A DNA stretch of 64,000 nucleotides. Origin: Candidatus Anstonellales archaeon (GTDB lineage: Archaea > Micrarchaeota > Micrarchaeia > Anstonellales > J096). A program made the translations under genes and the position numbers. The DNA lies in NCBI GenBank assembly GCA_038890745.1, contig JAWAFD010000005.1:1-64000 (forward strand). The letters run 5' to 3'. The notes under the pieces are model-generated. The model made no database searches and was not told where the DNA came from. It was given only the letters and a program-made list of their open reading frames with translations. Shown here piece after piece: positions 11,561 to 34,156 of the stretch (position 1 is its first letter; each line of letters begins with the position of its first letter).

Positions 11561-11587
11561 AGGATGATTTTGAGACAAAAGTTTTTT

Positions 11588-11637: not shown

Positions 11638-11671
11638 ACATTACGCAGAAAACACATGGGGTAGAAAAAAG

Positions 11672-11723: not shown

Positions 11724-11754
11724 CTTTAAAAAACCTTCGCTGCCCAGTATAATC

Positions 11755-12960: not shown

Positions 12961-12987
12961 CTAAAAATGGTCGGAAGTCTGAACAAA
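12936..12987. repeat. Palindromic direct repeat R2, copy at the ATPase 3' end
   Basis: Identical to 11672-11723; contains the TAG stop at 12958-12960. Confidence 0.9.
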
Positions 12988-13017: not shown

Positions 13018-13325
13018 GCGGAACCCAGGGGAGGTCGTAGGAGGTTTTCTTTTGGCGACCTCCCCCATGTTCTACGATACTCCCCACCCCCTCCGCAATC
13101 ACGCTCGCATACGCTCGCTTGGGGATAGGTTTTTAAGCACTTAGGAGGATATTATAGTATATGGTGATAGGTGTAAAAGAGAGGAAGGATAAGGAAGTTA
13201 AGTTTTCTGATAAAATTAGAAGGAATTTTGAGAGGTTTAAGGATAAGGTTGAGGGATTGGGGAAGAAGGCAATTATTTTAGGTGGAGTTGGGATTGGAGT
13301 AGGTCTAGGGTGTGCGAGTGATGGA
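13018..13325 (+). repeat. J1 repeat copy 1 (hairpin, ACGCTCGC repeats, B promoter and B leader coding sequence)
   Basis: Near-identical to 17638-17945 (offset 4620); 13088-13319 is also repeated at 15021-15252. Confidence 0.95.
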
Positions 13326-13667
13326 GTTAGTCCAAAACAGTACACACTAGATCAGGTTCAAAGTGGACGGATAACGATTGATGAATTTGTAGAAAACATG
13401 GACCTGTACAGTTTGTGTTACACAAAAGAGGATTCAATAGCTATGGTGGCTATTTTCTGGTGGAAAACAACTGGAAGTAAAGATCCATTAATTTGGGAAA
13501 AATTAATAAGAGGGGAGAATGTAGATTATGAAAGAACTTATCCTCCAAGTGGTCCACCACCTTTTAACGTTAGCAGAGATGATTTGTACGGTTTAAGGGT
13601 AGCTACGTCACCGTATGTAGATACTCTAATTCAACGCGCAAAAGACGGTGCTCCTCTTATTAAATAA
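13161..13667 (+). CDS. B1: exported or lipoprotein-like variable partner protein, convergent with cassette C5
   Basis: Leader MVIGVKERK...AIILGGVGIGVGLGC identical to B2 and B4; variable body with TKEDSI motif. Confidence 0.85.
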   Translation: MVIGVKERKDKEVKFSDKIRRNFERFKDKVEGLGKKAIILGGVGIGVGLGCASDGVSPKQYTLDQVQSGRITIDEFVENMDLYSLCYTKEDSIAMVAIFWWKTTGSKDPLIWEKLIRGENVDYERTYPPSGPPPFNVSRDDLYGLRVATSPYVDTLIQRAKDGAPLIK

Positions 13668-13670
13668 GGC

Positions 13671-14351
13671 TCATTTACCTTCCTTGAATTGTTCTTTTAA
13701 TGCATTCAACTCTTCTCCAGCTTGTTTTTTCAGTTCTGGAACTGCCACCACTCCTCCAGCATAGCCTATAAGTATGTTCATTTTTATTGCAGATTTATCG
13801 TACTTAAATAAATTCAACTTATTTGAGCTTTGAGAAAAAGTTTTCCCATATTCTGACAATTGTCCTGATTCCATAGAGGACAACATTACTGACCAGGCCC
13901 TTATTCCATATTTCTCATCAAGTTGCTGTTTTACTTGAGGGTCAGTAGAGTATTGTTGTATTAAATCGTCAGCTTTTTGTAGTGCTAGTTCAGTACTTTC
14001 TCCTTTGGAAATAAAATCATCAGCAATAGAAGTACGTAATCCCACCCCTATGTAATAAACTTCAGAAAACCCTGGGGTTTCTTGTTTGATTTTTTTTGTG
14101 AGCTTCTCCCCCGCCTCCGGATCTTTTCTTAAAATTTCTTCAATCTGTGTTCTTTTATCCTCTTCACTCAATTCTTTATTTTCTAATATTGCTGCAATCT
14201 GTTCTGAAACTGTTGCCGCTCTCTCATACAAACTTATTTGTTCTCTTTTCCATTCCTCAAACTGTTTTTCATTAGGAAGTTTTCCTTTCCATTTAGTTAG
14301 ATAAGCAGCATATAAGCTTCTTTCTATTTCTGTTGCTGGCATTAGTTCTGA
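13671..14351 (-). pseudogene. C5: 5'-truncated alternative C-terminus cassette of gene A (C1 subtype)
   Basis: 14215-14351 is near-identical to 20188-20324 (SELMPATEIERSLYAAYLTKW...YERAA), then an open divergent C-terminus; 5' end abuts the TA module region. Confidence 0.85.
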
Positions 14352-14439
14352 ATTACATTCAATATATGGAGAAAAGGAGGCCCATTCATTAGGCGAAATA
14401 TTTTTAAGGTTAGGATGAGTATATATCAAAGGTGAAAAC

Positions 14440-14646
14440 GTGGAGACTATTACTGTGAACGTAAATTTGCTTAAGGAAATGTACAAAAGAATACTTAGAA
14501 TAGAGGAAGAGATAAAGGAAATTAAGTACGCGGTTGTCGAGATAGAAGAAGTATCAGAGAGGGAGATTAAACAACTCGAAAAAAGAAAGAAAGAAGCATT
14601 AAAAGGAATGGGAATCCCACTCAACAAAGCATTAGAGGAATTTTGA
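14440..14646 (+). CDS. Putative antitoxin
   Basis: 68-aa ORF directly upstream of a RelE-type toxin; C-terminus GIPLNKALEEF. Confidence 0.7.
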   Translation: METITVNVNLLKEMYKRILRIEEEIKEIKYAVVEIEEVSEREIKQLEKRKKEALKGMGIPLNKALEEF

Positions 14647-14648
14647 AT

Positions 14649-14921
14649 ATGAGGGAATTCAGGATTATTATACACAAGCAGGTAATAAAGCAGCTTAGAA
14701 AGTTAGATGCACGCATAAGAAATAATGTAAAAAAGGTTCTGGTTCATCTACAGTATGACCCGGTACCTGCAAAGTCATATGATATAAAGAAACTTTCAAA
14801 AGGAGAAGGACATTACAGAATAAGAATAGGAAAATTTAGAGTTCTATATTGGGTTGATTTTACAAATTATCTGATTGTAGTAACGGATATCAAACGAAGG
14901 GACGAAACAACATACAAATAG
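14649..14921 (+). CDS. RelE/ParE family toxin
   Basis: KQLRKLD...DP...KKL..G..HYRIRIGKFRVLY...IVVTDIKRRDETTYK. Confidence 0.9.
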   Translation: MREFRIIIHKQVIKQLRKLDARIRNNVKKVLVHLQYDPVPAKSYDIKKLSKGEGHYRIRIGKFRVLYWVDFTNYLIVVTDIKRRDETTYK

Positions 14922-15020
14922 TGTACCAAACCCCTCTAAGATATCTAATGTGGGTTAAAGCAAAACTTAGGTTAGGTTAAATAATGTTCTAGATGATGTC
15001 TTCCGTGCTCTATGCTACTT

Positions 15021-15252
15021 CCCCTCCGCAATCACGCTCGCATACGCTCGCTTGGGGATAGGTTTTTAAGCACTTAGGAGGATATTATAGTATATGGTGA
15101 TAGGTGTAAAAGAGAGGAAGGATAAGGAAGTTAAGTTTTCTGATAAAATTAGGAGAAATTTTGAGAGGTTTAAGGATAAGGTTGAGGGATTGGGGAAGAA
15201 GGCAATTATTTTAGGTGGAGTCGGGATTGGAGTAGGTCTAGGGTGTGCGAGT
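15021..15252 (+). repeat. J1 repeat, partial copy
   Basis: Matches 13088-13319; preceded by a degenerate version of the upstream J1 sequence. Confidence 0.9.
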
Positions 15253-15552
15253 AAGGATGACAGTATTTATTCGTACTACAATGTTACGACTGCCGACTCA
15301 ATTAGCCTGGATGAATTTAGGCAGTATGTATATCGTGGAGCAGTAACAAGAGAGGACAGCCTACTCGGTCTAGGTAAGTTTATATGTGAAATATGGGGGT
15401 TCATACCAACTGAAGAAGAGTTCTTTAGTATGCCTATGTTGGAGTCTCAAAGAAAGTTTTTTGTATATATCATTGCGGAAAGAGACTATTACAAGTTATT
15501 AATAGAAGCGTTAGAAACGATTAAAAAAGAAGAAAAGTTAGAAAAAAAATAA
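15094..15552 (+). CDS. B2: variable partner protein, convergent with cassette C4
   Basis: Same 53-aa leader as B1 and B4; TREDSL motif. Confidence 0.85.
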   Translation: MVIGVKERKDKEVKFSDKIRRNFERFKDKVEGLGKKAIILGGVGIGVGLGCASKDDSIYSYYNVTTADSISLDEFRQYVYRGAVTREDSLLGLGKFICEIWGFIPTEEEFFSMPMLESQRKFFVYIIAERDYYKLLIEALETIKKEEKLEKK

Positions 15553-15574
15553 TTATTCTCTCATAAAGAAAAAA

Positions 15575-16431
15575 CTAAAATCCGCCAAGTAAAACATAGA
15601 GCTTCAAATCGCTTACATTTTCTGGTGGCTTAGACCACGCATCCTTATTTTTTGTTATCCTATCGAGAAATTGAGTTAGGTCACAACCTCCCTCTTTAAA
15701 TGCTTGGGTAAAACCTTGCGGGTCAAAGGTTTCTGGTTTTAAAAACGATGCAGCGTCATCCAATTTCCTCATTTTCTCTTCTTTTTCTTTTCCATCTGGA
15801 ACAAAAGAAAGTTCGCCCTGAGCTTTAGTTATATACTCACTCGCTAGCCCACTCAGCCCACGAAACGCTGCTATTTTGTCTTCATCACTCAATTCTTGAT
15901 AAGTAGTCCCTCCAGTTAAAACAGCATAGGCAAGTCGATACTCGTCCGCTCTTTTATCAAAGTAGCTCTGAACTTTTTTAAGTGCTTTTTCATCCCCTTT
16001 AAGTGCTTTATCAAGGGATTTTCTAAGTTCTATATCTTCCCCTGTAAGTTTTTTAGGATCTGCTCCAAGAGTAGCGCTTAGTATACTATACTCTTCTCTT
16101 TCCGCTCTATATTTCTCCGGATTCATATACGCATCCATCAATATTTTTCTCGCCTCTCTTAACTCTCCTTCGTTCATCCCTAAACTTATTACATCATCTC
16201 CAATCCGTATGTTTCCTTTCCAAGCAATTGATAAGGAAGCTATTATTTGAAGTGTATTTTGCGCCTCTTCATACGGTTTGGCTTTATCTATTGTTGCTTG
16301 GAGGTCTTGGTATTCTGGAGTTTCTTTCTCTACTGTAAATATTGCTTTTCTTGCTTCCTCGGCCTCTTTTAGAATATTTGGGTCAAAGGTTCTACTTAAT
16401 AAAAATGCTTGGTTTGTTTGCTCAGTTATTT
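15575..16431 (-). pseudogene. C4: 5'-truncated alternative C-terminus cassette of gene A
   Basis: 16120-16431 matches gene A 21748-22059; in-frame TAA and no ATG upstream of the homology block; divergent open C-terminus. Confidence 0.9.
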
Positions 16432-16494
16432 TTAGGAGCAGGTAGGGGATAGGTTTTTAACTATTTCTTAGCATATTATAATTAGTGTATTAGT

Positions 16495-17076
16495 ATGATA
16501 GTAGATGGAAAAACGAGAGAGTTTGGATTTACCAAGAAATTTAGGGAATTTGCTAGAAACTTAGGATTTAAAGGAAGGGATGTTTTGGTTGCTGGAATAA
16601 TCGGAACTGGAATTTTATCTGGCAAGGCTGGAGCCCAGCAGGCAGATTCTTTAGTTATAGATACAAGCTCTGTTCATATAGATTCTACTTATATAGACTG
16701 GAGTAAACCAAGGTTTATGGGATTGACTTATGGTTATTATTATGATTGGTTTAAAGTAACAGGAGTGGCTGCTTATCGTCTTTATATGGAATATGGTATG
16801 AGCTATTCTGATGCGTTAACGTGGCTCGATAGTGTTCAAACAGCAGGGTCAATCAAGACTTTCCCATATAACCAACCCCAAACAAGAGAGGATACAATTA
16901 AAACGATAATTGATTATTTTAAGTTGCACTACAATTTATTCCCCAAGAGTGATACTGAACTTGAATGGTACATAAAAACTCACCCAAATAAGGCTGAGCA
17001 GATAAAAACAGATTGGTACATAATACGAAATAGTCCTTATTGGCCTTATCTGGTAGAAGTTGGAAGCAAAAGATAA
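16495..17076 (+). CDS. B3: variable partner protein with signal peptide, convergent with cassette C3
   Basis: Shared promoter block at 16445-16460; charged n-region then VLVAGIIGTGILSGKAGA; TREDTI motif; overlaps the C3 3' end by 31 nt. Confidence 0.8.
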   Translation: MIVDGKTREFGFTKKFREFARNLGFKGRDVLVAGIIGTGILSGKAGAQQADSLVIDTSSVHIDSTYIDWSKPRFMGLTYGYYYDWFKVTGVAAYRLYMEYGMSYSDALTWLDSVQTAGSIKTFPYNQPQTREDTIKTIIDYFKLHYNLFPKSDTELEWYIKTHPNKAEQIKTDWYIIRNSPYWPYLVEVGSKR

Positions 17077-17637
17077 ATAGCAAGCGAATTTCTATTTAAA
17101 TTTTCCAAGATATTTGTTGCGGATTGTAAAGATTTCTGTTTTCCCTTAGCGCCCTCTACAGCAGTTTGGTAATACTTTTCAGAAAGTTTTTCTAATTGTT
17201 TTTTTTCTTCGTCACTATATTGTTCTGTTTTAAAGAATAATAATAGTGCAATTTTAGCATCATCTTTTTCAAAGTTACCTCCACTAGCAATAACAAAACC
17301 AAGTATATCCCGACCCCGTTGCAACCTATCCTCCTCACTCATTGTAGATGGGTCTTGTTGAATAAATTCAAGAGTAGTAGTTACATTATTCAATCTTGTA
17401 TTATTATAGCTACTCAATTCAGCTATCAATTCCTTCATAGCTTTTTTATCTCCTTTAAGTGCTCTTTCTGTGAGAGTTAACAATTCTTCATCTTGGGTTG
17501 TTAATTCTTCTGGTTTTTTAATACGAACCTCTGTTATTAATGAAATAGCTTCTCTTTCCGCTCTATATTTCTCCGGATTCATATACGCATCCATCAATAT
17601 TTTTCTCGCCTCTCTTAACTCTCCTTCGTTCATCCCT
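17046..17637 (-). pseudogene. C3: alternative C-terminus cassette of gene A with short homology block
   Basis: Begins GMNEGELREARKILMDAYMNPEKYRAERE as in C4; homology stops at 17637 where J1 begins. Confidence 0.85.
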
Positions 17638-17945
17638 GCGGAACCCAGGGGAGGTCGTAGGAGGTTTTCTTTTGGCGACCTCCCCCATGTTCTACGATAC
17701 TCCCCACCCCCTCCGCAATCACGCTCGCATACGCTCGCTTGGGGATAGGTTTTTAAGCACTTAGGAGGATATTATAGTATATGGTGATAGGTGTAAAAGA
17801 GAGGAAGGATAAGGAAGTTAAGTTTTCTGATAAAATTAGGAGAAATTTTGAGAGGTTTAAGGATAAGGTTGAGGGATTGGGGAAGAAGGCAATTATTTTA
17901 GGTGGAGTTGGGATTGGAGTAGGTCTAGGGTGTGCGAGTGATGGA
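17638..17945 (+). repeat. J1 repeat copy 2
   Basis: Near-identical to 13018-13325. Confidence 0.95.
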
Positions 17946-18296
17946 ATTAGAACATACAATATAGGTAGTAGAACATACTATATCTTATCTACTTCTGAGA
18001 TCGAAAAAATGAGCATAGATGAATTAAGGGCCCATATTTATAAGGGTGCAACGACAAGAGACGATAGTATAACTTGTCTAGCCATGTATATGGCTGCAAG
18101 ATGGGGATCCATAATAGGGCATATACCGTTTGCTGATGAGTGGGGACGGATAATTCCAGAACCTACTCTTGAAGAACTACTGATAATAATGGGGGACGGA
18201 GCTGGAAACGACCAACCACCATACTACATTACAATACTCCTTGGATTATACGGTAGAACAAGTAGCGACGGTAGAACAGAGTTGGTTCCCAAATAA
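17781..18296 (+). CDS. B4: variable partner protein, convergent with cassette C2
   Basis: Same leader as B1 and B2; TRDDSI motif. Confidence 0.85.
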   Translation: MVIGVKERKDKEVKFSDKIRRNFERFKDKVEGLGKKAIILGGVGIGVGLGCASDGIRTYNIGSRTYYILSTSEIEKMSIDELRAHIYKGATTRDDSITCLAMYMAARWGSIIGHIPFADEWGRIIPEPTLEELLIIMGDGAGNDQPPYYITILLGLYGRTSSDGRTELVPK

Positions 18297-18336
18297 AAAA
18301 CAAATAAAGTAAAACTTTATTAATAACTATGTATGT

Positions 18337-19145
18337 CTAATATGCACACAGGATTCGAATTTTTAATTCCTTCAAACTTTTTGGTGGGCTAGAGTAGACA
18401 TCTCTAATGTCTCTTCTCTCGCTAGCAAAAGTAGCTTGGTCAACTCCAATGTCTCCTAATACTTTTGTAAAGTCTTGTAGGTTAAAAGTTTCTATGTTCA
18501 TCAAGTAGGGATATAATGTGGATATTTTATGCAACAGGTATGGTTCGAATTCGCCTCCTACATACAAACCGCGTAGTGTTGTTTTTTTGTCTTCTTCATC
18601 TAGATTTTGATAGTCAACATTTCCAGTTAAAACATTATAAGCAAGGTCATAGTCATGTGCTTTTTCTCTAAAGTAGTTCTGAAGTTCTCTGAGTGCTTTT
18701 TCATCTCCGTTAATTGCTCTATCAAGATCTCTTCTAAGCTTGATGTCTTTTTCATCTGTAAGTTTCTCAGGATCTGCTGTAAGTGTAATAGCCAATAATC
18801 CATATACTGTTTTTTCTGCCTTATATTTCTCCGGATTCATATACGCATCCATCAATATTTTTCTCGCCTCTCTTAACTCTCCTTCGTTCATCCCTAAACT
18901 TATTACATCATCTCCAATCCGTATGTTTCCTTTCCAAGCAATTGATAAGGAAGCTATTATTTGAAGTGTATTTTGCGCCTCTTCATACGGTTTGGCTTTA
19001 TCTATTGTTGCTTGGAGGTCTTGGTATTCTGGAGTTCCTTGCTGCACTGTAGGAAGTTGTTTTTTTGCTTCATTAGCGGCCTCTATAATTTTTGGGTCAA
19101 AGGTTCTACTTAATAAAAATGCTTGGTTTGTTTGCTCAGTTATTT
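18337..19145 (-). pseudogene. C2: 5'-truncated alternative C-terminus cassette of gene A
   Basis: 18834-19145 matches gene A 21748-22059; no upstream start codon; divergent C-terminus related to C4. Confidence 0.9.
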
Positions 19146-19198
19146 TTAGGAGCAGGTAGGGGATAGGTTTTTAACTATTTCTTAGCATATTATGGTAT

Positions 19199-19651
19199 AT
19201 GATGATAGGTGTAAAAGAGAGGAAGGATAAGGGAGATAAGTTTTCTGATAAGATTAGGAGAAATTTTGAGAGGTTTAAAGAGAGAGTTGAACTAAAAGTA
19301 AAAAACACATCACCAAAGACAGGAATCTTATTATCTGCTCTGTTATTTGGAGAGTGGAGTCTCGTCAGCCTAGATGGTATGAAGTCAGTCCTTGAAGAAT
19401 CTGACCCGATTTATGGTCAAGTTTTCACAGAACTCTGCGATAAGATCTACTCTCGATGCACTACGAAACAAGATAGTATAGACGTTGCAAGAGCTACACT
19501 TAAAGAAGCCACTGGAAGTAGCGATCCAGAGATGTGGGTAAAAGTTTTTAGTAATCTTCTCAGCAACAGTTTTAGAGATGGAAAATGTACAAACGAGGAC
19601 TTTAAGTTATTGCTAATATTTTATGCTACTATTCCATATGCAAGCCAATGA
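19199..19651 (+). CDS. B5: variable partner protein, convergent with cassette C1
   Basis: N-terminus MMIGVKERKDKGDKFSDKIRRNFERFK like B1; TKQDSI motif; overlaps the C1 end by 23 nt. Confidence 0.8.
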   Translation: MMIGVKERKDKGDKFSDKIRRNFERFKERVELKVKNTSPKTGILLSALLFGEWSLVSLDGMKSVLEESDPIYGQVFTELCDKIYSRCTTKQDSIDVARATLKEATGSSDPEMWVKVFSNLLSNSFRDGKCTNEDFKLLLIFYATIPYASQ

Positions 19652-20641
19652 TAGATTTAAGCCCAATGGCAGTAGAAACTGCGAAATAATATCCTATAAG
19701 TAGATTCTGTTTAAAATATACACTGCCCATCTCTTCTACTTTATTTTGTTTTTTATCTAGATCAGTAATAATATTGGCAAGATGTTCTGAACTTGGTCTG
19801 ATTTCTACGGATGGGAGTCTTATCCCATCTATCATGAAATTCGCTATCGACATTGCATAGTATGGGGCTACCCTATCAGAAGCCTCTTTATTACCCGTTC
19901 CTGCTTTATTAAAAATGTCTAAAGCTTTTGGCATTGCATTTTGTATAGCCGCGACTTCATCTTTGGTCAAATTATCTGATTTTTTTCCAACTTCGACTCC
20001 TGCGATCTCCTGAGCTAAAAATATCCGCGCATTAGTAGATATAAAGGTGGACAAAGTGGGCATAAGTATATTAAATTCTTGTGCTAACAAACTTATGCTG
20101 GCGTAATCAAGACCAATTAATGCCTTCTCTATCTCCTCCTGACTCGCTCCTTTTTCCAATAAATCTGCTATTTCTTTTGCTTTATCCGCCGCTCTCTCAT
20201 ACAAACTTATTTGTTCTCTTTTCCATTCCTCAAACTGTTTTTCATTAGGAAGTTTTCCTTCCCATTTAGTTAGATAAGCAGCATATAAGCTTCTTTCTAT
20301 TTCTGTTGCTGGCATTAGTTCTGACCAATCTTTTCCATATAAAGAGATTATCTTTTCTCTCGCTTCTTTTAGTTCTTTTTCATTCATCCCTAAACTTATT
20401 ATATCATCTCCAATCCGTATGTTTCCTTTCCAAGCAATTGATAAGGAAGCTATTATTTGAAGTGTATTTTGCGCATCTTCATACGGTTTGGCTTTATCTA
20501 TTTTTGCTTGGAGGTCTTGGTATTCTGGAGTTCCTTGCTGCACTGTAGGAAGTTGTTTTTTTGCTTCCTCGGCCTCTTTTAGAATTTTTGGGTCAAAGGT
20601 TCTACTTAATAAAAATGCTTGGTTTGTTTGCTCAGTTATTT
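19629..20641 (-). pseudogene. C1: 5'-truncated alternative C-terminus cassette of gene A
   Basis: 20383-20641 matches gene A 21801-22059; diverges after GMNE. Confidence 0.9.
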
Positions 20642-20704: not shown

Positions 20705-21232
20705 ATGGTAGAAAAAGTTAAAGTAAGGAAACAGGAGGATGCTAAAGAAACAGAAAATAGAGCGGGTATTTTTGAAAGGTTTAAAGATATAGTGGAGAGA
20801 TTTGGAAACAAGGCTTTAATTGCTGGGGTTCTTTTAGGTGGAGGTGTTGGAGTAGGAAAAGGATTCAGTATAAACGAAGGAGCTACATCTAGGCAGGATA
20901 GCATTAAAATAGAACTTGAGTTCTGGTTAGGATACGTTGACGCTTTCCAAACCTTTGGTATCGATGGAACCATAGTTAACCCTGAATTGGCGGATGAGAT
21001 ATATAAAGATGCTTCAACCAAAAGCGATAGCACTACACAAGCAATAAATTTTTGGCTTAGGGAAACAGGGCAGGTCCCATACTCAAGTATAGATGTTTGT
21101 ATAATGCTCAAGATACTGGCCACGATGGATTGGGAAGACTTAGCAACTTTCAGCCAATATGCGCAACGAATTAGCGATGGATGGCTATTAACTCAACCCT
21201 ATCTTAACAAAGAGATTAATTCAAATCGTTAA
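20705..21232 (+). CDS. B6: variable partner protein, convergent with full-length gene A
   Basis: FERFKD..E.FG.KALIAGVLLGGGVGVG leader; TSRQDSI and STKSDST motifs; overlaps the A stop by 12 nt. Confidence 0.85.
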   Translation: MVEKVKVRKQEDAKETENRAGIFERFKDIVERFGNKALIAGVLLGGGVGVGKGFSINEGATSRQDSIKIELEFWLGYVDAFQTFGIDGTIVNPELADEIYKDASTKSDSTTQAINFWLRETGQVPYSSIDVCIMLKILATMDWEDLATFSQYAQRISDGWLLTQPYLNKEINSNR

Positions 21233-23539
21233 TAGTAAAATCTTTGTTTTAAAGTTCATAGGATTTATTCCTTGATCTATTTTTTTCTTGTTATTGTCAA
21301 TCTCCAAAGTAAGTTTGGAGTTTTGCTCCTTTATATCCTTCACTACTTGTTCTTGTACCTGAGGATTCGAGTCCAAAAACTGCATAGTGAATAGTATTTT
21401 ATCTTCAATAGTTGGGAATTTTTTTACCTCATCTTGATATTCCACTCCACCATATTTATAAGATAGCGCAACAATATTACCAAAAACTCGGGATGTGGTT
21501 GCTTTATCAAAGGAACTTATATCACCACCTTCCAAAAGCGTTAGTGCAGCATTATACGCGAGTAAACGTCTCTCTTGCTCTAGATACAGTTGATTCCTAA
21601 CTCTTTCCAATGCTTTCTCATCTCCACTTGCCGCTTTTATTATATCCTCTCTCAGTTTCTTATCCTCATCTGTTATTTGTTTTTCGGGCGTTCTTAATGC
21701 AACAATAATTGGTGCAAGCAAACTTTTTTCGTCTTTATATTTCTCTCGATTCATATACGCATCCATCAATATTTCTCTCGCCTCTCTTAACTCTCCTTCG
21801 TTCATCCCTAAACTTATTATATCATCTCCAATCCGTATGTTTCCTTTCCAAGCAATTGATAAGGAAGCTATTATTTGAAGTGTATTTTGCGCATCTTCAT
21901 ACGGTTTGGCTTTATCTATTTTTGCTTGGAGGTCTTGGTATTCTGGAGTTCCTTGCTGCACTGTAGGAAGTCGTTGTCTTGCTTCATTAGCGGCCTCTAT
22001 AATTTTTGGGTCAAAGGTTCTACTTAATAAAAATGCTTGGTTTGTTTGCTCAGTTATTTCGGCAATGAATTTTTTTCCTTCTTCTGTGCTTAACAATTCT
22101 TTATCGTTTACTATTTCTGAACAAAGACCAAAAGCTCTTGAGAGTTGGGTGTATAATTGAGCTTTTGCTTCGTCTTCTTCTGCTTTTGCTGATGCCCTGT
22201 ACAACTCTGAGAGGTTTGAGTAGATTGCCTTTTTATCTTTTGGATCTACTTCCTTTCCTTCTAAAAGCTTTTGGAGTTCGGATGAATTCTCTGTTAGGTA
22301 CTTTAGCTGCTCTCTTGCCGCTCCTCTCATTAGTCCTCCCACTATTGCCTCAGAGACACCAAAAAATTCAGCTAATGAAGCAATATTTCCACGTGCAAAA
22401 CCAACCATCAAAGCCGCTGAAAATATCTGGCTTACACCAAACTGTCCTGTTGCTATTGCTACTCTCTGCTGGCCTGCCCTTAACTCACCTCCTCCGCCCC
22501 CCTCCTTCACTTTCTTTCCTGTCCAGAACCTCCCTTTTCCAACTCCTCTTAATCTTTCTTCTACTATTCCCATATTCTCCGCTATCCATGCTGGTCTTCC
22601 TCTTATCAACCCTTCTTTTACCCTACCGGGAAGAATTTTTGTCGCAATTCCTCCCATTGCTTCAACCGCTTTGGTAGCTGCTCTGGTTGTTACAGAGACG
22701 CCTTTTTCCACTGCTTCAACAGCTTTTTTAATAAAAGAAACTTTCTTTCCTAACTCAACTGCTTTTCCGCCAAGTTTTTTTGCATGTGGGGCGACCTTAG
22801 CCACGACCTTAGCCTGTTGCAGAGTAATCCCTCCCTTCCCTGTTATTCTTGCTCTTTGGCCTGTAATAAATCTTAAAGTATTCAGATCAAACCAGAAAAA
22901 TGGGCTTCCACCAGTGGCATAGGAAGCAGCGAGAAGCATGCCTGCGATTATAAAAAGAGGTAAGCAGATTGCAGGTGCGGTTCCTCCAAAAAGAGGAGGA
23001 AGGAGTGTTGGGATGTAAACGACTTGGGCATATGTTGGGGAAAGGGTTGCAAAAATAGGCTGACCATTTTTATTTATGTATGCTGACTCAGGCCATGGGG
23101 CTGGTTTAAACCCTCCGCATGGAGAAACATCTTCAAAAGAGGTTATACTTTCGTTTAGGCAGGGCTGGAGAAGGCAGTTTGGAGAAGAGGAGCAGCAAAA
23201 CTTTACACCTATCGTACACCCCCTTACCATCCCTGTTCCTGAGCATGTTTCGTTATAAGGTGTTAGGTCAAAAACCGCTTTTCCATTCTCATTTGTAAAA
23301 ACCCTGCACCTAGAATAAAGGTCACCAGTTGCATTATACACTTCAATAAATAGGGTTGCGTTCCCAACAGGAAGCCTTTCTCCATTATAAACGGCATACA
23401 TGTATATATCTACATTTTTTTCAACCAAACCTGCAATAATCCCGGATTCATAAGCATTAAAAAGCTCCTCACAGCCAGGGCAGGGAGGCTGAGAGAAAAG
23501 CAAACTCATAAAAAATAAAAGAAAAAATACTTTTCTCAT
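21221..23539 (-). CDS. Gene A: 772-aa membrane protein with exchangeable C-terminal domain (putative expression locus)
   Basis: Signal peptide, Cys-rich domain, TM helix, basic linker, second hydrophobic segment, conserved block ITEQTNQAF...MDAYMN repeated in the cassettes, unique C-terminus. Confidence 0.9.
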   Translation of the reverse strand: MRKVFFLLFFMSLLFSQPPCPGCEELFNAYESGIIAGLVEKNVDIYMYAVYNGERLPVGNATLFIEVYNATGDLYSRCRVFTNENGKAVFDLTPYNETCSGTGMVRGCTIGVKFCCSSSPNCLLQPCLNESITSFEDVSPCGGFKPAPWPESAYINKNGQPIFATLSPTYAQVVYIPTLLPPLFGGTAPAICLPLFIIAGMLLAASYATGGSPFFWFDLNTLRFITGQRARITGKGGITLQQAKVVAKVAPHAKKLGGKAVELGKKVSFIKKAVEAVEKGVSVTTRAATKAVEAMGGIATKILPGRVKEGLIRGRPAWIAENMGIVEERLRGVGKGRFWTGKKVKEGGGGGELRAGQQRVAIATGQFGVSQIFSAALMVGFARGNIASLAEFFGVSEAIVGGLMRGAAREQLKYLTENSSELQKLLEGKEVDPKDKKAIYSNLSELYRASAKAEEDEAKAQLYTQLSRAFGLCSEIVNDKELLSTEEGKKFIAEITEQTNQAFLLSRTFDPKIIEAANEARQRLPTVQQGTPEYQDLQAKIDKAKPYEDAQNTLQIIASLSIAWKGNIRIGDDIISLGMNEGELREAREILMDAYMNREKYKDEKSLLAPIIVALRTPEKQITDEDKKLREDIIKAASGDEKALERVRNQLYLEQERRLLAYNAALTLLEGGDISSFDKATTSRVFGNIVALSYKYGGVEYQDEVKKFPTIEDKILFTMQFLDSNPQVQEQVVKDIKEQNSKLTLEIDNNKKKIDQGINPMNFKTKILLLTI
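21748..22059 (-). repeat. A-repeat: ~312-bp coding block shared with the cassettes
   Basis: Copies at 18834-19145, 16120-16431, 20383-20641 (partial) and 17576-17637 (short), all in direct orientation. Confidence 0.95.
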
Positions 23540-23574: not shown

Positions 23575-26500
23575 CTAATCATCAATCCAGCAATCCGAAA
23601 CCCTTGTTTTAAGAGGAACGTCAAACCCGCAGAAATTCGCGTATGTGCTTCCTCTTACGCATTCCTTGCTCTCATTTCCCGAAGTAGAGAATAGGATAGG
23701 AATGGGTTTTATGGAGGAGGACTGAATCGATAAGAATGTTTTTGTGTTGTCCGCAACACAAATTTTTGGAAGCCCTTTTATAGAAGCAATTAGGTCTGAA
23801 TACAAAGATGGCTCTGCCATCACATCCTGCAAAGGGTATTCCTCAAAAGAATACTTTCCTGCGCTGTAAACCCGACATTTTAGATTTCCAGAATAGGGAG
23901 GGGAAATACACATCTCTTTTACAACACAACCCTCTGGCCATTTCTGATTTCCAGAATATCCAGAGCACTGAAAACCAGTAAGCGGGTCGCCCAAATAATA
24001 CCCATTACAAACACCTCTAAGAATGTCGACCTCATCACATTCAACGCAGACGCACTCCTCGGAAACCTCGGCTTCGCTAACAAACGCATATGGGGTAAGA
24101 CCTGATGAAATCTCAGCAGAGGATTCAACAGAACAGTAATCCTGCATATTTAAAGACGAGCCATCTGAGATGCTGAAATCAGAGAAATGCATCCCAATTA
24201 TCCCTGAATTAACAAACCTTGCCCTTTGATAGGCAAGGTAGTTGAACATTCCATACTTATCTACAGGAGTGTTTACCTCTCTGATCATTAGCAGGGATGG
24301 CTTCCCGAACCTAGAAACAAGTTTTCTTGAAATGTTGTTTAATTTTTGAACAACGTATTCGTAAAACTTTATTTTTTCCTCTTCATTGTTAAGCGGAATT
24401 TTTGGGTTTATTTTTACTTCAACAATAAAAAGGTCTGAATTTTCCATAAGGGAATTGCATTGCTGCCCTGCAAAAGTTCCTTCCCTGGCACAGAACTCCT
24501 CTCCCGCTAAATGGTCTGACATTTCTAAACCATACGCACTGTCAAAATTCTCAAGGAAAGACCTTTCAGAGTTTATATCCTGCGAATCAATGCCGGTTAT
24601 GGTAATCTCACCTGAAAGCGCAGGCATACAATAGGGGCATGGTTCCTTAACCTCCATTGCCCTCTTCTCTAAATTTATTTCATAGTTGTTTCTTTCTTTT
24701 GCATTCCCTATAACAACAATTATCGGCCCCAAAGAGGATGCAGATTCTTTGTAATCGCCGGCATGGTTTCCTTGGTAGTCATCTGCGGCATAAAGCAGGC
24801 TTACGTATATATCGCGAAGGAGTTTGTATGCAAATGTTGCATCCTCTTTGTAAACCGTGCGCTCAGGTTCATAGCAGCTATCGCATCCATAGTAAGTTTT
24901 GTAAAGCTCATCATCTTCGGCATAAAGAACTGGCATAACCCCTGAAAATAGATAAGAAGTAAGCTTTCCTTTCATGTATTTCCAGTGAGGATAGAAATCA
25001 GGCCAGGAAACACGGGCATCATAGACATCACCATCTTGTCTTGTCGCATCCTTGCAGCCAAAAGCTAAATTGTAAGCATCGCACCTAAGCTGGTCATCAC
25101 GATGCCCTCCACACGCAACCCTTGCATCAACACTACCAGTGGAGATAACACGCCCGTTTTCATAAACCTCTCCAACAGTTTTTCCCTCCCACTCATTTGG
25201 GTTTCGCGCATTCAGGTTTGAGGGTGGCAGGATCTCAAGGAGAGGGCAGTAGTTTGCTATTCTTTTGTTTATTTCATTTGTAGTATCAGCCTCGTAATCA
25301 TTCTTAAAATCTTCATAAGGTCCTTCTGGATAATCCGCAAGGTCTATTCGCGCTATTCCATTATTTTCAGAAATGGGAAGATCTTCGCTATTCGGGTCTC
25401 CGCCAGTCGGGTCATAGAATTCGTTTAATGGGTAAAGATGCTCAACAGCAATTGTGTTGAAGGTTGCAGGCTCGCACCATCCATATTCCTTTACAACTAT
25501 GTTGCCCATTTCATCGGTTAAGCAGTTTCCAAAATTTCCATCCTTATTTTTTCTTATTACTATTGCTGCGGATGCATACGCGCTGCATTCGCCATCCTCT
25601 CCCTGAGAGACGCAAAAATCATCATCTGTTAAACCAGAGCATATTTCTCTCCAATTTTCACCCATGCTCGAACCATCCAACCCGAATTTCGGGGGATAGC
25701 ACACGGCGATATCATCTTTGTATTCTTCGCTCATGCAGTTTTCTATAAAATTCACAACATACGTCCCTCCTTCCTGGCATCCACTCCAGGTGGTTGGAAC
25801 AATCTGGCAGTAATGAAGAATTGCCCATCTCGTTGGCTGGTCGTTCGGAAGAGGATAGTTCACAATCGGGCCGAGTGTTGAGCTGACGTCCCTTGAAAGG
25901 AATATCATAATCTTCCCATTGCTTATCTTTCCTGAAACCGGTGAAGGAGGAGTAAACAACCATTCTTCTGTTTTCAGGGATGCTCTACTCACTCCTAGAG
26001 TTTCCCCATCCCACATATCCACACTATTTTTTGGTTCATCTGAAGCAGGAACAGATTTTGTTCTTGTTGGGTTGCAGGCAACAGAGCCATACTCGTAGGA
26101 ACAGCCGCACTCAACACCTTTGTTTGTTGAAGCATGTATGCATACACTCCTTTTGTAAACGTTATTTCCACAAACCCCAGAGTAGCACTCAAACCCGCTC
26201 TCACATTCAAACTCTGCTTTTCCACCCTCAAAAATCTGTGAGGCATAAATCGTGTGTCTAGGAAGAACGTTTGCATAATAGGTTGGAATTTCCTTAAACC
26301 CAAAAATTCCAACAGTTGCAGCAGTCAACCCGGTTCCTTCTTTTGCGAATTTTAAAACCCCGACATTTGCTGTTCTTCCATCGTTCGGATATTGTAATTC
26401 AACCTCTCCCTGGCTCCAGAAAGTATTTCCTCTACCAGCTGCGCTCTCATCCTCAACATCTGCCCAGAAAAGCCCTCCGTACCAGTGCTTCACAGAACCC

Positions 26501-27267
26501 GGCTCATCCCCGAAAGGAGAGTTTGGAAGGGAAAGGGATTGGGTGGGGGAGGAGCAAACCATTGCTGGGTTTATCCCTCTGCATTCCCATTCGCACTCAT
26601 AGTAAGAGGAGTATTCTTTGCCGTTTTCTGTGCAGGAATAAGCGCCATTTGTTTGTTGGCATTTTTTTTCAGCAAAAAAATAGTTTGAATACCTATCTTT
26701 TGTTCCAGTGTAGGAATTTAAGACCTTATCTGAGAGCGGGAAGAGGTACCGGTAAGTATCGTATTCCTCAAAGCTTTCTCCGATTCCAAACCTAAAACTA
26801 TTCAGCATAAGCCCTTTGCTCATCGCGCTTTCAACAGAAGGGGTCATTTTCAAAACATCGCATTCTGCATGCAGAAGGCCAAAAACAGCTCCTTGGCCTG
26901 TTGGAAGTTCTATGTTTCCCTTCTCAACATCCTCATGGCTTATGAGAAGGGGAATGCCTATCTTTCCAAAATCACCGCAGAGCATTCCAGAGCATCCCTC
27001 AACACAAGATTTTACCTCCCATTCTGAACAAACAGAATAGTTGAAATCCTCAACCTCACAGAAAATAGGCTCATCATTTTCTTTCCATACTTTACAATCA
27101 TCTTCACCAGTATAGCTAGGGTCTTCTGCGAGCTTGTCCGCAAAATAGCATTTATCGTTTTGAGCATATTTGTAAAGGCAGCAGTGCGCCTCTGGTTTCT
27201 GGAAGCAACCAACCATAAGAAGAAGCGCAAAACCCAAAAACAAAATAAATAATTTTCTTACTTTCAT
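23575..27267 (-). CDS. Large Cys-rich secreted or lipoprotein surface protein (1230 aa)
   Basis: MKVRKLFILFLGFALLLMVGC lipobox-like signal; many Cys; acidic composition. Confidence 0.8.
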   Translation of the reverse strand: MKVRKLFILFLGFALLLMVGCFQKPEAHCCLYKYAQNDKCYFADKLAEDPSYTGEDDCKVWKENDEPIFCEVEDFNYSVCSEWEVKSCVEGCSGMLCGDFGKIGIPLLISHEDVEKGNIELPTGQGAVFGLLHAECDVLKMTPSVESAMSKGLMLNSFRFGIGESFEEYDTYRYLFPLSDKVLNSYTGTKDRYSNYFFAEKKCQQTNGAYSCTENGKEYSSYYECEWECRGINPAMVCSSPTQSLSLPNSPFGDEPGSVKHWYGGLFWADVEDESAAGRGNTFWSQGEVELQYPNDGRTANVGVLKFAKEGTGLTAATVGIFGFKEIPTYYANVLPRHTIYASQIFEGGKAEFECESGFECYSGVCGNNVYKRSVCIHASTNKGVECGCSYEYGSVACNPTRTKSVPASDEPKNSVDMWDGETLGVSRASLKTEEWLFTPPSPVSGKISNGKIMIFLSRDVSSTLGPIVNYPLPNDQPTRWAILHYCQIVPTTWSGCQEGGTYVVNFIENCMSEEYKDDIAVCYPPKFGLDGSSMGENWREICSGLTDDDFCVSQGEDGECSAYASAAIVIRKNKDGNFGNCLTDEMGNIVVKEYGWCEPATFNTIAVEHLYPLNEFYDPTGGDPNSEDLPISENNGIARIDLADYPEGPYEDFKNDYEADTTNEINKRIANYCPLLEILPPSNLNARNPNEWEGKTVGEVYENGRVISTGSVDARVACGGHRDDQLRCDAYNLAFGCKDATRQDGDVYDARVSWPDFYPHWKYMKGKLTSYLFSGVMPVLYAEDDELYKTYYGCDSCYEPERTVYKEDATFAYKLLRDIYVSLLYAADDYQGNHAGDYKESASSLGPIIVVIGNAKERNNYEINLEKRAMEVKEPCPYCMPALSGEITITGIDSQDINSERSFLENFDSAYGLEMSDHLAGEEFCAREGTFAGQQCNSLMENSDLFIVEVKINPKIPLNNEEEKIKFYEYVVQKLNNISRKLVSRFGKPSLLMIREVNTPVDKYGMFNYLAYQRARFVNSGIIGMHFSDFSISDGSSLNMQDYCSVESSAEISSGLTPYAFVSEAEVSEECVCVECDEVDILRGVCNGYYLGDPLTGFQCSGYSGNQKWPEGCVVKEMCISPPYSGNLKCRVYSAGKYSFEEYPLQDVMAEPSLYSDLIASIKGLPKICVADNTKTFLSIQSSSIKPIPILFSTSGNESKECVRGSTYANFCGFDVPLKTRVSDCWIDD

Positions 27268-27276: not shown

Positions 27277-28233
27277 CTAAACCAATTTTGAGACCATTGA
27301 GATGAATGCTGTTGGCATCCCACCAAGTATGACTGTTGCAAACCTTATAAAAACAAAGGAAAGGGAAAGGGCTGCGAGGTTTCCAAGTAAAATCTGGTAG
27401 AAAACAGATGCCATGAAGTCCTGCATTGATTTGTGTTTTATCCCCATCTGGGCTGATTGCATGGAGAACCTGCTAAAATCCAAATCAAACCCTCTTCCTA
27501 TGCTCAAATAGGTTGGGTAGTTGCAAACGGTTTCAGTTTCGAGCATAGGGGATTTTGGAGGGGCAACAAAACCCGATGAGGCAATCCATAGAACAGATGG
27601 GTAGATGTAGTAAAGAGCAATTGCTATTGAAATGAACAGAGCACCAAGCCCACGGGTAAGCTTCATTGCGCGGAGAACTATTCCAACTGGAAGGAATATG
27701 GAGAGCATGTACTTTGAGATGTAATCTAGAACGTAGTATTGCGCTGCTAGGAAAACAGAAAGCTCTGTTCCTTTTTGTGTAAGGAACTGAACTTCAGAAA
27801 CTCTTCTGTATATCGCCTCCCACCATCCCCCCTGAAAAATGGGGATGCCATACCATCCAAGATAGATTGATGAAAGTGGCATGACCCATCTCGCATCAGA
27901 TGCTGCTGAATTCAGCACATCCTCCATTGATGCGAGCATGAGGAGCGTCTGCTCTTTTGACTGCTCAATCGCAAGAATGTTTATCGGACCCGGAGTTTGC
28001 GGGGGTGTAAGAAGGGTTGAAATCCCATTCAGTATGAAAACAAGGAATATTATACCCAAGGCAACTGCAATATTGTCTATTATTTCAGCAATGGCAATCG
28101 TTTGCCCCCTCATGTCCATGAACATTTTCGCGAACATGTAATGGATTACTTCTATAAAAAATAGTATGAGCACTGAGAGGATTGCAACAATCCCCCAGTT
28201 TGTTTCCCAATCAGCAAGAAAATCCACCATCAT
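27277..28233 (-). CDS. Multi-pass membrane protein, paralogue 6 (VirB6/CedA-like, inferred)
   Basis: Shared motif FLPVGIVLRAMKLTRGLGALFISIAIALYYIYP. Confidence 0.75.
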   Translation of the reverse strand: MMVDFLADWETNWGIVAILSVLILFFIEVIHYMFAKMFMDMRGQTIAIAEIIDNIAVALGIIFLVFILNGISTLLTPPQTPGPINILAIEQSKEQTLLMLASMEDVLNSAASDARWVMPLSSIYLGWYGIPIFQGGWWEAIYRRVSEVQFLTQKGTELSVFLAAQYYVLDYISKYMLSIFLPVGIVLRAMKLTRGLGALFISIAIALYYIYPSVLWIASSGFVAPPKSPMLETETVCNYPTYLSIGRGFDLDFSRFSMQSAQMGIKHKSMQDFMASVFYQILLGNLAALSLSFVFIRFATVILGGMPTAFISMVSKLV

Positions 28234-29315
28234 ACCATCCTCAAGAATCTTGCGATCTCTATTTCCTCCCCAAGGAATTTTCCGAGAGCGATTATTCCAG
28301 CAGAGGTGCCTATGAAGTTCAATGAAAGCAGGAATGATGAGATTAAAAAGCTTATCGCACCGTATGTAAGCAACCTATCAAGAGAAACCGAGCAGACAGA
28401 GCCGTGCTGTGGTGGGCTGAGGTTTTTGCACAAATATATTTTTCCATCATGCTCCTTGAAAAAATAATCAAACTGCCCGAATAAGAATATGTTCCAGTCA
28501 AGCCCTCCCTTAAAGTATGGGTCTTTTTCATCTATGTTCAACCCTCCTGGGGATGTCAAGTAGTGGATCTCATTTTGATTATCATATCCCCATTTTTCAG
28601 GCCTGAAAACAAGCCCTTCTATAACAAGAAGGGTAGGGAAGAAAACAATGAAGCCGGCTCCTATCGCAAGCAGAACACCCCCAACCCTTCTTGCAAAAGG
28701 TATAGATCGAAGGACAAGCCCAAGAGGGATGATAAGGAGGAAGCCCCCATTCATAAAAGAGCGCAACAGATATTTCTGCGAAAGAATGGTGAGAAGAGAA
28801 ATTGTTGTTGTGTACGCCTGTGCGTTAAGAACGGCTGAAATCAAAGATGCCCACGCATCAGGGTTTAACCCAACCCCTTGGCCTGCGAGGAAGCACCAAA
28901 GGCTTTTACACTCGTATTTCCATACTGAAGAAATAAATCCTGCCATCATATTGTATATCCTTGTCATACGCATGGTGTTGTGCACATAGATACTCATGTT
29001 ATCAAGGTAAGCATCTGCAAAATCGTACATACACATATCTCCCTGCACTGAAAACCCTGTTAGTTCGGAAAGCACGGAAACATTGTAAATTGTTCCAAGA
29101 TTGAGGAAGCTGAGGATAAAAACTGAGATGAGAGTTGAGAAAAAAAGCTGTGGAATCTCATCATGCGCCCAAACATCCAGTTTTGGGTTGTTTGTTATTT
29201 TTCCAATCATGTAAATTATTGAGATGATTATTGCAGAGGAAGCGATGCCTATGGCCATGGCTGTGTACACAAAGCCCATGTTCAGCATCTCAGGAGTAAA
29301 TGTTGTACAGGTCAT
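28230..29315 (-). CDS. Multi-pass membrane protein, paralogue 5
   Basis: IIPLGLVLRSIPFARRVGGVLLAIGAGFIVFFP; start MTCTTF at 29315 gives an ATGA overlap with the upstream gene. Confidence 0.75.
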   Translation of the reverse strand: MTCTTFTPEMLNMGFVYTAMAIGIASSAIIISIIYMIGKITNNPKLDVWAHDEIPQLFFSTLISVFILSFLNLGTIYNVSVLSELTGFSVQGDMCMYDFADAYLDNMSIYVHNTMRMTRIYNMMAGFISSVWKYECKSLWCFLAGQGVGLNPDAWASLISAVLNAQAYTTTISLLTILSQKYLLRSFMNGGFLLIIPLGLVLRSIPFARRVGGVLLAIGAGFIVFFPTLLVIEGLVFRPEKWGYDNQNEIHYLTSPGGLNIDEKDPYFKGGLDWNIFLFGQFDYFFKEHDGKIYLCKNLSPPQHGSVCSVSLDRLLTYGAISFLISSFLLSLNFIGTSAGIIALGKFLGEEIEIARFLRMV

Positions 29316-30334
29316 GCTATCCTCTCCAACTGCGCCAGCACAAAGGCGTACACCTCTGCGCCAAAGGCTTTTGAAGACGCACCTATCAGGGAGATGAGGA
29401 CTAGAAGGGAAATCCCCTCTGAGAACATGGATTTTACGAGCGCAAGGAAAACAGGACCGGAATAATCTGCGTTTATCATTGTTTCTGTCGCCTCCATGGC
29501 GTCGTACACCGGGTCTGCAGAACCGCTGCGACCCATGTTCGTTGCCTTGCACTCAATTTTGGATGTGTCCACATTTATAGCCGGGTTGAGAGCGTTGATG
29601 TTTTGATACTCTGTGGAAACCCCATACATGAAAACAATCATAAGCGGGTAGACAAAATAAAGCCCGAACGCAAGGGAAAGCAAAAACCCTCCCAGCCCCC
29701 TGCTTATCCCAAAGCATCTCATAAATATCCCAATCGGAAAAACAATCAAGAGAACAAAATCAGGGGTAAGCTTAAGGAGGAATATCTGGGAGCTTGTTGT
29801 TGCAATGGAAGCGCCAACTGTAGCTGCGTACATGCTGAGTGGGCTGGAAAACGCACTGAAGCCCATGCATGGGTTGATGCTGAAACCCATGTACACTCCT
29901 TTGCAATAGAAATCCTTTGTGGATTCCTTACTAATGTCTTTTGAAACTGCTGCTATCTGGGTTAGGAGGAGTGTCTGCTCAGAGAGAAGCCTTTCGCTTA
30001 TGTCTATTGCGAAGTTTATGTGCTTGGGTGTTGGAACTGCATTAAGATTCTCATTCGGGAACCAATAGGAAGCAGCCCCTGCGGAAAACTGATCTATGAT
30101 CGCAACCGCGAAAAGGAAGAGGGAGAACATGGCAAGGGTTGCGATCCACTCGTACGCCTCATGCTTGGCTGCAAGCTTCAGTCCCTCGCTCTCAAAAGCT
30201 ATTCCGACCGCGTACACAACACTAATGAGTAGGGCTGCGATGAGCATCGCAAGAATGGAGGAAACCTCCCAGTTTTCTGGCTGGGCTGCAAAGGAAAGAG
30301 CAAACATCAACAGGAGGAATAATATTTTTCTCAT
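29312..30334 (-). CDS. Multi-pass membrane protein, paralogue 4
   Basis: Signal peptide; VFPIGIFMRCFGISRGLGGFLLSLAFGLYFVYP. Confidence 0.75.
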   Translation of the reverse strand: MRKILFLLLMFALSFAAQPENWEVSSILAMLIAALLISVVYAVGIAFESEGLKLAAKHEAYEWIATLAMFSLFLFAVAIIDQFSAGAASYWFPNENLNAVPTPKHINFAIDISERLLSEQTLLLTQIAAVSKDISKESTKDFYCKGVYMGFSINPCMGFSAFSSPLSMYAATVGASIATTSSQIFLLKLTPDFVLLIVFPIGIFMRCFGISRGLGGFLLSLAFGLYFVYPLMIVFMYGVSTEYQNINALNPAINVDTSKIECKATNMGRSGSADPVYDAMEATETMINADYSGPVFLALVKSMFSEGISLLVLISLIGASSKAFGAEVYAFVLAQLERIA

Positions 30335-32966: not shown

Positions 32967-32970
32967 CCCA

Positions 32971-34095: not shown

Positions 34096-34156
34096 CGCTA
34101 GGAGTTGAAAGTAAGCGCTTAAAAATGTTTTGTATTCAAAGAAACAAGGGGAGAGT

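Follow-up and report, generated by a model that had tools for sequence, protein, structure and literature searches.

The window analysed here (64,000 nucleotides from a DPANN archaeon) holds a locus in which gene A is present once in full and its C-terminal part recurs in five headless cassettes (C1-C5). A and each of the cassettes face a small B gene tail-to-tail, and every B gene comes with a TATA-like promoter of its own and a leader of the export type. Recombination at a box within A (amino acids 494-605) and at the B promoter/leader moves the tail and its B gene as a unit, and the array is found in one genus. Judged from sequence, there is about an even chance that the locus is a polymorphic array of the effector/immunity type, in which the role of each B would be to neutralise the tail it is paired with, and the whole would operate on a type IV secretion-like machine of Micrarchaeota. 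The features of the locus are as follows.

13018..13120, no strand assigned: dispersed repeat carrying an inverted-repeat stem (10-11 bp), found again at 17638-17740
13121..13156, plus strand: TATA-like promoter block, one copy 5' of each B; others at 15054, 16445, 17741, 19159 and 20655
13161..13667, plus strand: B1, YxxCxT / TGSxDP class, lipobox-like GLGC
13671..14351, minus strand: C1 headless cassette, box gone
14440..14921, plus strand: inserted two-gene module, a 68-aa ORF and a ParE/RelE-family toxin gene
15094..15552, plus strand: B2, YxGAxT class
15575..16431, minus strand: C2 headless cassette with a 336-nt box (92% identity to A)
16495..17076, plus strand: B3, long class, AxA-type leader end
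17046..17637, minus strand: C3 headless cassette, short 86-nt box, interrupted by the dispersed hairpin repeat
17781..18296, plus strand: B4, YxGAxT class
18337..19145, minus strand: C4 headless cassette with a 336-nt box (96% identity to A)
19199..19651, plus strand: B5, YxxCxT / TGSxDP class
19629..20641, minus strand: C5 headless cassette with a 288-nt box (95% identity to A), a SELMP segment and a distal tail
20705..21232, plus strand: B6, which pairs with the expressed A tail; the two genes converge and overlap by 12 nt
21221..23539, minus strand: gene A, full length, 772 aa, expressed tail, partner B6
23575..27267, minus strand: Cys-rich exported protein of 1230 aa, encoded immediately upstream of A
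27277..34338, minus strand: six multi-pass membrane genes, paralogous to one another, with a CedA/VirB6-like assignment by lead only

The five cassette tails are headless yet stop-free; the boxes of C2-C5 span 86-336 nt, are 92-96% identical to A, and are mosaics of one another. The inserted two-gene module occupies the place of C1's lost box, and its toxin gene matches PF05016 at the family's cut-off in a Pfam scan that covered window genes up to 46.7 kb, except 41279-44182. Misassembly of the array is excluded by contigs that bridge the B-tail junctions: six of six are spanned by single contigs in run X1, which may be the source sample, and again six of six in run X2, and a divergent strain in run X4, from the same study as the other two, keeps the B1-C1, B3-C3 and B6-A pairings. 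One X2 contig connects C5 with the toxin-antitoxin side, but it runs at low depth through a 63-nt repeat, could reflect a path chosen by the assembler and was left out of the counts.

Gene A begins with a signal peptide-like start and a Cys-rich N-domain, followed by one strong hydrophobic helix (190-208), a basic stretch, a weaker Gly/Ala-rich hydrophobic stretch (360-404), the recombination box and the variable tail. Its N-terminal family is found in 41 of 61 relatives, while the region after the membrane segment is highly variable across the order. Seven full-length homologues carry five or more tip types on a constant N-terminal part. Their tails include C1-like (P0008/L023), C2-like (P0003), C3-like (P0004, P0007) and C5-like (P0005/L021) types, all silent in the window, together with a mosaic SELMP tail (P0002). 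Because relatives bear window-silent tails on full-length A, the tails have been swapped, and on an X4 contig the C2-type box letters are likewise joined to a full-length A body. The standalone cassettes share homology suited to recombination into full gene A, and the SELMP segment, a 137-nt repeat that is all C1 and C5 have in common at the nucleotide level, forms a second recombination box. A paralogous A at C1:239111 (C1 here being a contig label) lacks a B gene. Across 176 genomes, the tail family occurs in two and the B family in three, both within the same single genus.

All nine tails that could be read to their end on DNA adjoin an intact B gene, and all nine pairs are convergent. A T-rich box precedes the B genes at -30/-29 or -40/-39, which is the genome's usual distance (a peak at -31 to -27 over 150 genes) or 10 nt farther; a sigma-70 promoter scan, a model unsuited to archaea, gave chance-level results only. 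The 51-aa leader is identical among B1, B2 and B4, in keeping with the grouping made in the earlier note. Twin-arginine export of B was dropped, as the RR pair is not conserved. The hairpin repeat has no Rfam match, and shuffled sequences fold as well as its window copy taken together with the flanks (z -0.93; the G001 copy reaches z -3.5). The repeat was also dropped as an array-specific recombination site, being dispersed in genomes G001 and G002. A similar promoter block and hairpin repeat also lie 5' of an unrelated exported-protein gene in G002.

The earlier note proposed that the subtype of B tracks that of the adjacent tail. Every motif it gave is present in the translations, among them those for B1 and B5 (YSLCYTKEDSI/YSRCTTKQDSI, TGSKDPLIWEK/TGSSDPEMWVK and ATSPY/ATIPY) and those for B2 and B4 (S.DE.R..[VI]Y.GA.TR.DS and WG..PT.EE, B4 having an insertion). 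C1 and C5 both start with SELMPATEIERS and finish with N.LIGY, and C2 shows 58% identity to C4 across 293 aa with the shared box counted in. The likeness seen within each class holds. The matching of classes also stands, but the partner order had been swapped, the real neighbours being B1-C1, B2-C2, B4-C4 and B5-C5. SELMP, taken as a class marker, is present as described but is decoupled from B within its class (proximal r=0.07, distal r=0.68, six pairs); B follows the distal tail, not the SELMP segment.

Inheritance as a pair, also proposed there, is borne out beyond the window. The trees of tails and B bodies share the supported groups W1/L023/L026, W2/QXD51 and W3/c14143, the pairing persists at a synonymous divergence of ~0.8-2, and in nine of nine outside pairs tail and B are both closest to the same window cassette. 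Within the window alone, tail and B distances give a marginal Mantel correlation (r=0.50, reached by 34 of 720 permutations). Among the nine pairs that were read on DNA, tail distances correlate with those of the B bodies at r=0.74 (1 of 20000 permutations, a p-value overstated by kinship among the pairs), and for 11 and 15 pairs, again including kin, at r=0.74 and r=0.59. B leader distances, used as a control, do not follow the tails (r=0.09; 5938 of 20000 permutations), and a Mantel test on five outside pairs only was not significant (r=0.71; 14 of 120).

Linkage alone accounts for this congruence. The variable halves of tail and B abut tail-to-tail, with a gap of -31 to +62 nt and homologous flanks on both sides, so recombination carries both together whatever their roles; co-variation alone is expected of any cassette system and is not the surprising part. 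Co-evolution through contact, which the earlier note allowed for, would be a step beyond this congruence. That B is nothing but a passenger, an exported protein trapped between the box and the repeated promoter and co-varying through whole-cassette movement, is nevertheless an unlikely account. It would fit the lack of homology for crossover at the junction, the tracking by B of the nearer (distal) rather than the farther part of the tail, as distance predicts, the dispersal in the genus of B-like promoters and repeats that front other genes, and the cassette found at an unrelated site in G001. Against it stand the intact B beside every one of the nine tails and the small number of B homologues, of which 1.84 billion representatives yielded 16 (17 matches, one judged unrelated by inspection). 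The dN/dS values of 0.23-0.35 for both C1-type tails and B1-type bodies further indicate that tail and B are both under purifying selection, B at the tail's level, and the two have diverged at roughly threefold the rate of core genes.

The effector/immunity reading would draw these features together. A would be anchored in the membrane beside a type IV secretion-like machine comprising the six membrane paralogs and VirB4/CedB-like ATPases, and its tail, soluble and helical, would be delivered to the envelope of a cell in contact with it, the most plausible recipient being a competing relative. B, for which export or lipid anchoring is predicted, would be produced from a separate promoter and would attach on the outside to the distal tail that matches it. 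Under such a swap-and-stack scheme with separate B promoters, a cell would show one tail while keeping six B proteins, which would protect against tails once carried or acquired. One full gene and headless, stop-free tails, each with a B, count for this reading, as do the swapping of tails, the tail-B pairing, the purifying selection on both halves, the placing of the TATA-like boxes, the occurrence of both families in one genus beside an A paralog that lacks B, and a membrane paralog next to a CedB/VirB4-like ATPase operon. Against it count the absence of a recognisable toxin domain and the convergent, rather than co-directional, genes; the toxin-immunity order of polymorphic toxins is typically co-directional in the cited part of PMC3482391. 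Colicins that target the membrane or peptidoglycan synthesis, on the other hand, typically have a convergent immunity gene, as outlined in part of PMC6668396, which favours the reading. Since the A tail is predicted to be cytoplasmic and B to be outside, the topology also demands an extra step. Further points against it are the shared fold of the tails within a class, the failure of direct profile searches to place the six paralogs with VirB6/CedA, and the similar promoter block and hairpin repeat before an unrelated gene in G002.

Structural evidence points to helical tails. A, the tails and B have no Pfam hit above cut-off and no NCBIfam match. The predicted C1 model (pLDDT 88, ten helices) has no Foldseek match at E<=0.001; its best VIA Z is 7.6, on a two-helix hairpin, with generic coiled-coil matches only at Z<=7.6 and no colicin among the matches listed. 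C1 has one weak hydrophobic helix and no colicin-like hydrophobic hairpin, and no catalytic-type residues conserved across tail classes were found. The B1 body model has a pLDDT of 75 and a best Z of 3.5, and neither charge complementarity nor inter-chain disulphides between tails and B formed a pattern. Tails within one class are variants of one fold, not unrelated toxin domains, and the tail is probably non-enzymatic and envelope-acting.

The setting of A, behind six CedA/VirB6-like membrane genes, bears on the main rival, entry exclusion or kin recognition without killing. The CedA1-cluster lead for these paralogs scores 0.86 by language model, and their identity rests on this lead and on context. 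The TrbL profile gave 0 matches in the archaeon's own genome, and the paralog profile found nothing among PDB sequences, Pfam and NCBIfam. The ATPases match CedB/VirB4 below cut-off, and one paralog lies directly upstream of a CedB/VirB4-like ATPase operon. In this rival, which we consider somewhat unlikely, A would be the subunit that gives the transfer machine its specificity; in the cell that is contacted, B would recognise the matching tail and abort transfer or docking, as in TraG/Eex, with stacked B genes excluding several types. The company of VirB6/CedA-like genes, tails that are non-enzymatic variants of helical folds, and small B proteins with lipobox-like or signal-like leaders would all suit it, and exclusion factors that target the VirB6 homologue TraG fall into specificity groups in the cited part of PMC11493245. 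However, A shows no similarity to the membrane paralogs (membrane segment against paralog profile, HHalign probability 0.1), and with a single strong membrane helix it does not look like a TraG; the same comparison gives no support to its helix as a pilin-like homologue of the paralogs. No relaxase or mobile element came to notice. Silent-cassette arrays, moreover, are to our knowledge not a described feature of exclusion genes.

Cassette swapping can also serve recognition, as in the R64 shufflon, which switches PilV. A host-range switch, in which tail and B would form a two-part tip or adaptor for the host surface and swapping would change host, accords with the host-dependent lifestyle of DPANN archaea and with the variability of A after the membrane segment. 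We hold it to be very unlikely, as all six B promoters are kept although only one tail can be made, the window lacks a recombinase or inverted cassettes, and the tail is predicted to be cytoplasmic.

The array shares features with several known systems, compared here with the cited parts of each source. Cassette pairs shifted by a single recombination event define polymorphic toxin loci, and Rhs, CdiA and MafB likewise have a constant 5' body, a variable 3' tip, headless cassettes with homology boxes and one partner gene per tip (Zhang et al. 2012, PMC3482391). In contrast to these, the partner here is convergent, with its own promoter and export-type leader, no toxin domain is recognisable, the tips are variants of two helical families, and the delivery setting is a CedA/VirB6-like array instead of secretion of type V, VI or VII. 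The effector/orphan-immunity arrays of the Vibrio cholerae T6SS, formed by sequential displacement, also stack old partners behind the expressed gene and exchange modules horizontally (PMC5361080), whereas displaced tails here remain in frame beside their partners and there is no T6SS. Membrane-acting colicins and colicin M/Z have a downstream, convergent and separately promoted partner gene (PMC6668396), but A is membrane-anchored rather than released, and no pore-forming fold or hydrophobic hairpin was detected. TraG/Eex of IncC and SXT/R391 pairs a small partner, in specificity groups, with a variable type IV secretion component (PMC11493245); in the comparisons made here A does not come out as a VirB6/TraG homologue, and it is chromosomal and has an array of spare tips.

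Among archaea, VARTIG of Thermococcales, of unknown function, has a hypervariable C-terminus and linked partner genes arranged like polymorphic toxins (PMC8416519), but with Ig domains and co-directed genes where the variable parts here are all-helical and convergent. Ced/Ted combines CedA/VirB6-like membrane proteins with a CedB/VirB4-like ATPase; here there are six paralogs per locus, two loci and large accessory proteins, and polymorphic cassettes are not described for Ced in the cited part of PMC9905601. Polymorphic toxin loci are reported to be rare in archaea, according to the cited part of PMC3482391, and our literature search found none for Micrarchaeota and no paper describing this array.

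It is possible, as a tentative extension, that the six-paralog machine is used against hosts and also against other Micrarchaeota, with A turned in this genus into a polymorphic weapon or identity tag bearing new-fold tips and surface partners, in a self/non-self code among ectosymbionts on the same host cell. The array would mark the A tail as the part of an undescribed six-paralog machine that meets another cell, under diversifying turnover. Its six natural matched pairs of small soluble proteins would allow a direct test of whether host-dependent archaea fight or recognise kin.

Gene A and its partners lie in a genome of 0.99 Mb, and close homologues carry the labels Candidatus Anstonellales or Micrarchaeia. 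The features are as follows.

From 34.3 kb, minus strand: six paralogous multi-pass membrane genes, first in reading order, then the 1230-aa gene
Between the membrane paralogs and A, minus strand: 1230-aa Cys-rich gene
21221–23539, minus strand: gene A, 772 aa
After A, minus strand: five headless copies of the A 3′ end, in the order C5 to C1
Against the end of each tail, A's own included, plus strand: one small gene each, B6 to B1

Tail-to-B gaps in the window pairs range from −31 to +40 nt, and elsewhere in the assembly the A and B families are represented by a single distant A paralog only. A second six-membrane-paralog locus (L045, G000:C1:232511-243778) has a 1555-aa A paralog that ends in a four-Cys zinc-ribbon-like motif and is without B or cassettes. 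Other occupants of the window are two divergent AAA_14/DUF4143 ATPase genes (10325–12987) bounded by direct repeats of 52–53 nt spaced 1263–1264 nt apart, a 556-aa protein with a peptidoglycan-binding domain match (39612–41282; PF01471, E 2e-6), in an archaeon, and two tandem FtsZ genes (44216–46347).

The earlier note held that B subtype follows that of the adjacent tail, and the class motifs it quoted for tails and B bodies are all present in the window sequences. Among the six window pairs alone, tail and B-body distances correlate at r = 0.50, a value reached by 34/720 permutations. DNA sequence gave three pairs outside the window: L021 (a full A whose tail is C5-like, with a B of the B5 class), L023 (full A, 47% identical, with C1-like tail and B1-like B) and L026 in the related genome G001 (headless C1-like tail with B1-like B). 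Neighbouring locus tags supply two more (QXD51_01870/01865, with a C2-like tail and B2-like B; QXL47_02405/02410), and in four others tail-B adjacency is presumed from contigs of equal length, one of them (2760) having two candidate B genes. Over sets of 9, 11 and 15 pairs, Mantel r is 0.74, 0.74 and 0.59 for tail versus B body, and 0.09, 0.10 and 0.22 for tail versus B leader. Separate tail and B-body trees, compared for congruence, share the groups W1/L023/L026, W2/QXD51 and W3/c14143 (W, window pair); the tail tree adds the mosaic QXL47 to the first, and W6, a long branch, changes position between them. The proposal that tail and B are inherited as a pair is supported; the two may also co-evolve. 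Because the pairs are related, the p-values overstate the significance, and when the test is limited to the five firm outside pairs, 14/120 permutations reach the observed value. In 9/9 outside pairs, tail and B have their nearest window counterparts in one and the same cassette; restricted to the distal tail, the figure is 8/9, and some of the scores approach noise level. A YxxCxT-type B accompanies 9/9 tails of the class that carries the SELMP segment and 0/6 others, which represents one ancestral split and not 15 events. Contigs from public runs span 6/6 B-tail junctions in X1, which may be the source sample itself, 6/6 in X2 and, for a divergent strain present in X4, three junctions, all runs being from one study; none of the 12 joints listed connects one B end to another tail's end.

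Within the SELMP class, B correlates with the distal tail (r = 0.68, 9/720, six pairs; 0.34, 699/20000, nine pairs) but not with the first 75 tail residues (r = 0.07). The SELMP segments of W1 and QXL47 are near-identical, yet distal tail and B both differ. The heritable unit is therefore the distal tail plus B body. Nested recombination boxes delimit it at one end, and the leader and promoter of B at the other. Such a unit is expected from a binding pair and also from physical distance. Linkage alone, as an account of the whole system, we consider unlikely.

C2, C4 and C5 begin at A codon 494, directly abutting a B promoter, and their boxes are 92–96% identical to A and mosaics of one another. 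A box-to-box crossover would swap the expressed tail together with its B, through looping out and reinsertion or uptake from a relative. C1-, C2-, C3- and C5-like tails are found on full-length A homologues. This DNA-level account of tail exchange can be regarded as shown or closely inferred; the scanned window genes include none annotated as a recombinase. A ParE/RelE toxin-antitoxin-like pair is inserted in the array (14440–14921), where C1-type tails of runs X3 and X4 still have the box. In G001, a C1/B1-type cassette (L048 1-1930, contig C22) sits beside housekeeping genes far from any A that can be seen; a hairpin-rich block of ~330 nt, present in duplicate, flanks it, and a further B start lies at the contig edge. 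A dispersed repeat limited to the genus (window 13018–13120 and 17638–17740; L048, L071–L075) has a conserved inverted-repeat stem and a variable loop of 16–18 nt, often adjoins a B-type promoter, and is rendered by gene callers as a false N-terminus on cassettes.

All six B genes are probably transcribed, since a T-rich box lies upstream of each at −30/−29 or −40/−39, compared with a genome-wide peak at −31 to −27. Cassettes C1–C5 have neither signal peptide nor membrane anchor. At dS 0.8–2.1, dN/dS is 0.23–0.35 for C1-type tails as well as for B1-type bodies; for the A N-terminus and two membrane paralogs it is 0.09–0.14.

A comprises a signal-like start, a Cys-rich domain and one strong membrane helix; because a basic stretch follows this helix, the tail is predicted to lie inside the producer cell. 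The helix motif is kept across the order and everything downstream is variable, with the A N-terminal family in 41/61 genomes. The modelled C1 tail is a confident ten-helix fold (pLDDT 88) with no specific relative in structure searches, and tails contain no conserved catalytic residue set. B has a basic leader, a Gly-rich hydrophobic stretch of 14–15 residues, often a lipobox-like Cys, and a body modelled as a small helical domain (pLDDT 75; best structural match Z 3.5). B and tail profiles match only the window's genus (3/176 and 2/176 genomes), and searching 1.84 billion proteins with the B profile found 17, 16 of them evident members. One B3-like protein with a divergent leader (P0037) lies on a 253-kb contig.

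For one of the membrane paralogs, a language model pointed to a CedA1-domain cluster (score 0.86), which is a lead only. The CedA N-terminus is described as homologous to CedA1, and CedA to VirB6 (PMC9905601); searching directly for VirB6 with profiles returned nothing. A membrane paralog lies immediately ahead of a CedB/VirB4-like ATPase operon, the best ATPase hits being CedB (6e-28) and VirB4-like (4e-25), both below cut-offs. Operons at L046 (G000:C1:82157-85998), which opens with a seventh-type membrane paralog, and L047 (C2:64097-70063) encode a two-helix membrane protein and then a CedB/VirB4-like ATPase.

The array resembles orphan toxin/immunity arrays in its way of working, but its gene order differs from the one usual in them and no toxin domain was identified, so we do not class it among them. 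Our literature searches found no description of such an array; the nearest contexts are nanohaloarchaeal giant VirB4-bearing proteins (PMC10266531), Patescibacteria T4SS (PMC12102498) and VARTIG (PMC8416519). Pairwise cassette exchange is described as a hallmark of polymorphic toxin loci (PMC3482391; PMC5361080), and envelope-acting colicins as typically having convergent, separately promoted immunity genes (PMC6668396). Entry exclusion or kin recognition (compare PMC11493245) is conceivable at a rather low probability, and that the tail serves as a host-range tip seems quite unlikely. A polymorphic effector/immunity-type system is a reading we hold at about even confidence. The A tail would then be delivered into the envelope of a cell that touches the producer, where an outward-facing cognate B may bind and neutralise the putatively toxic tail.
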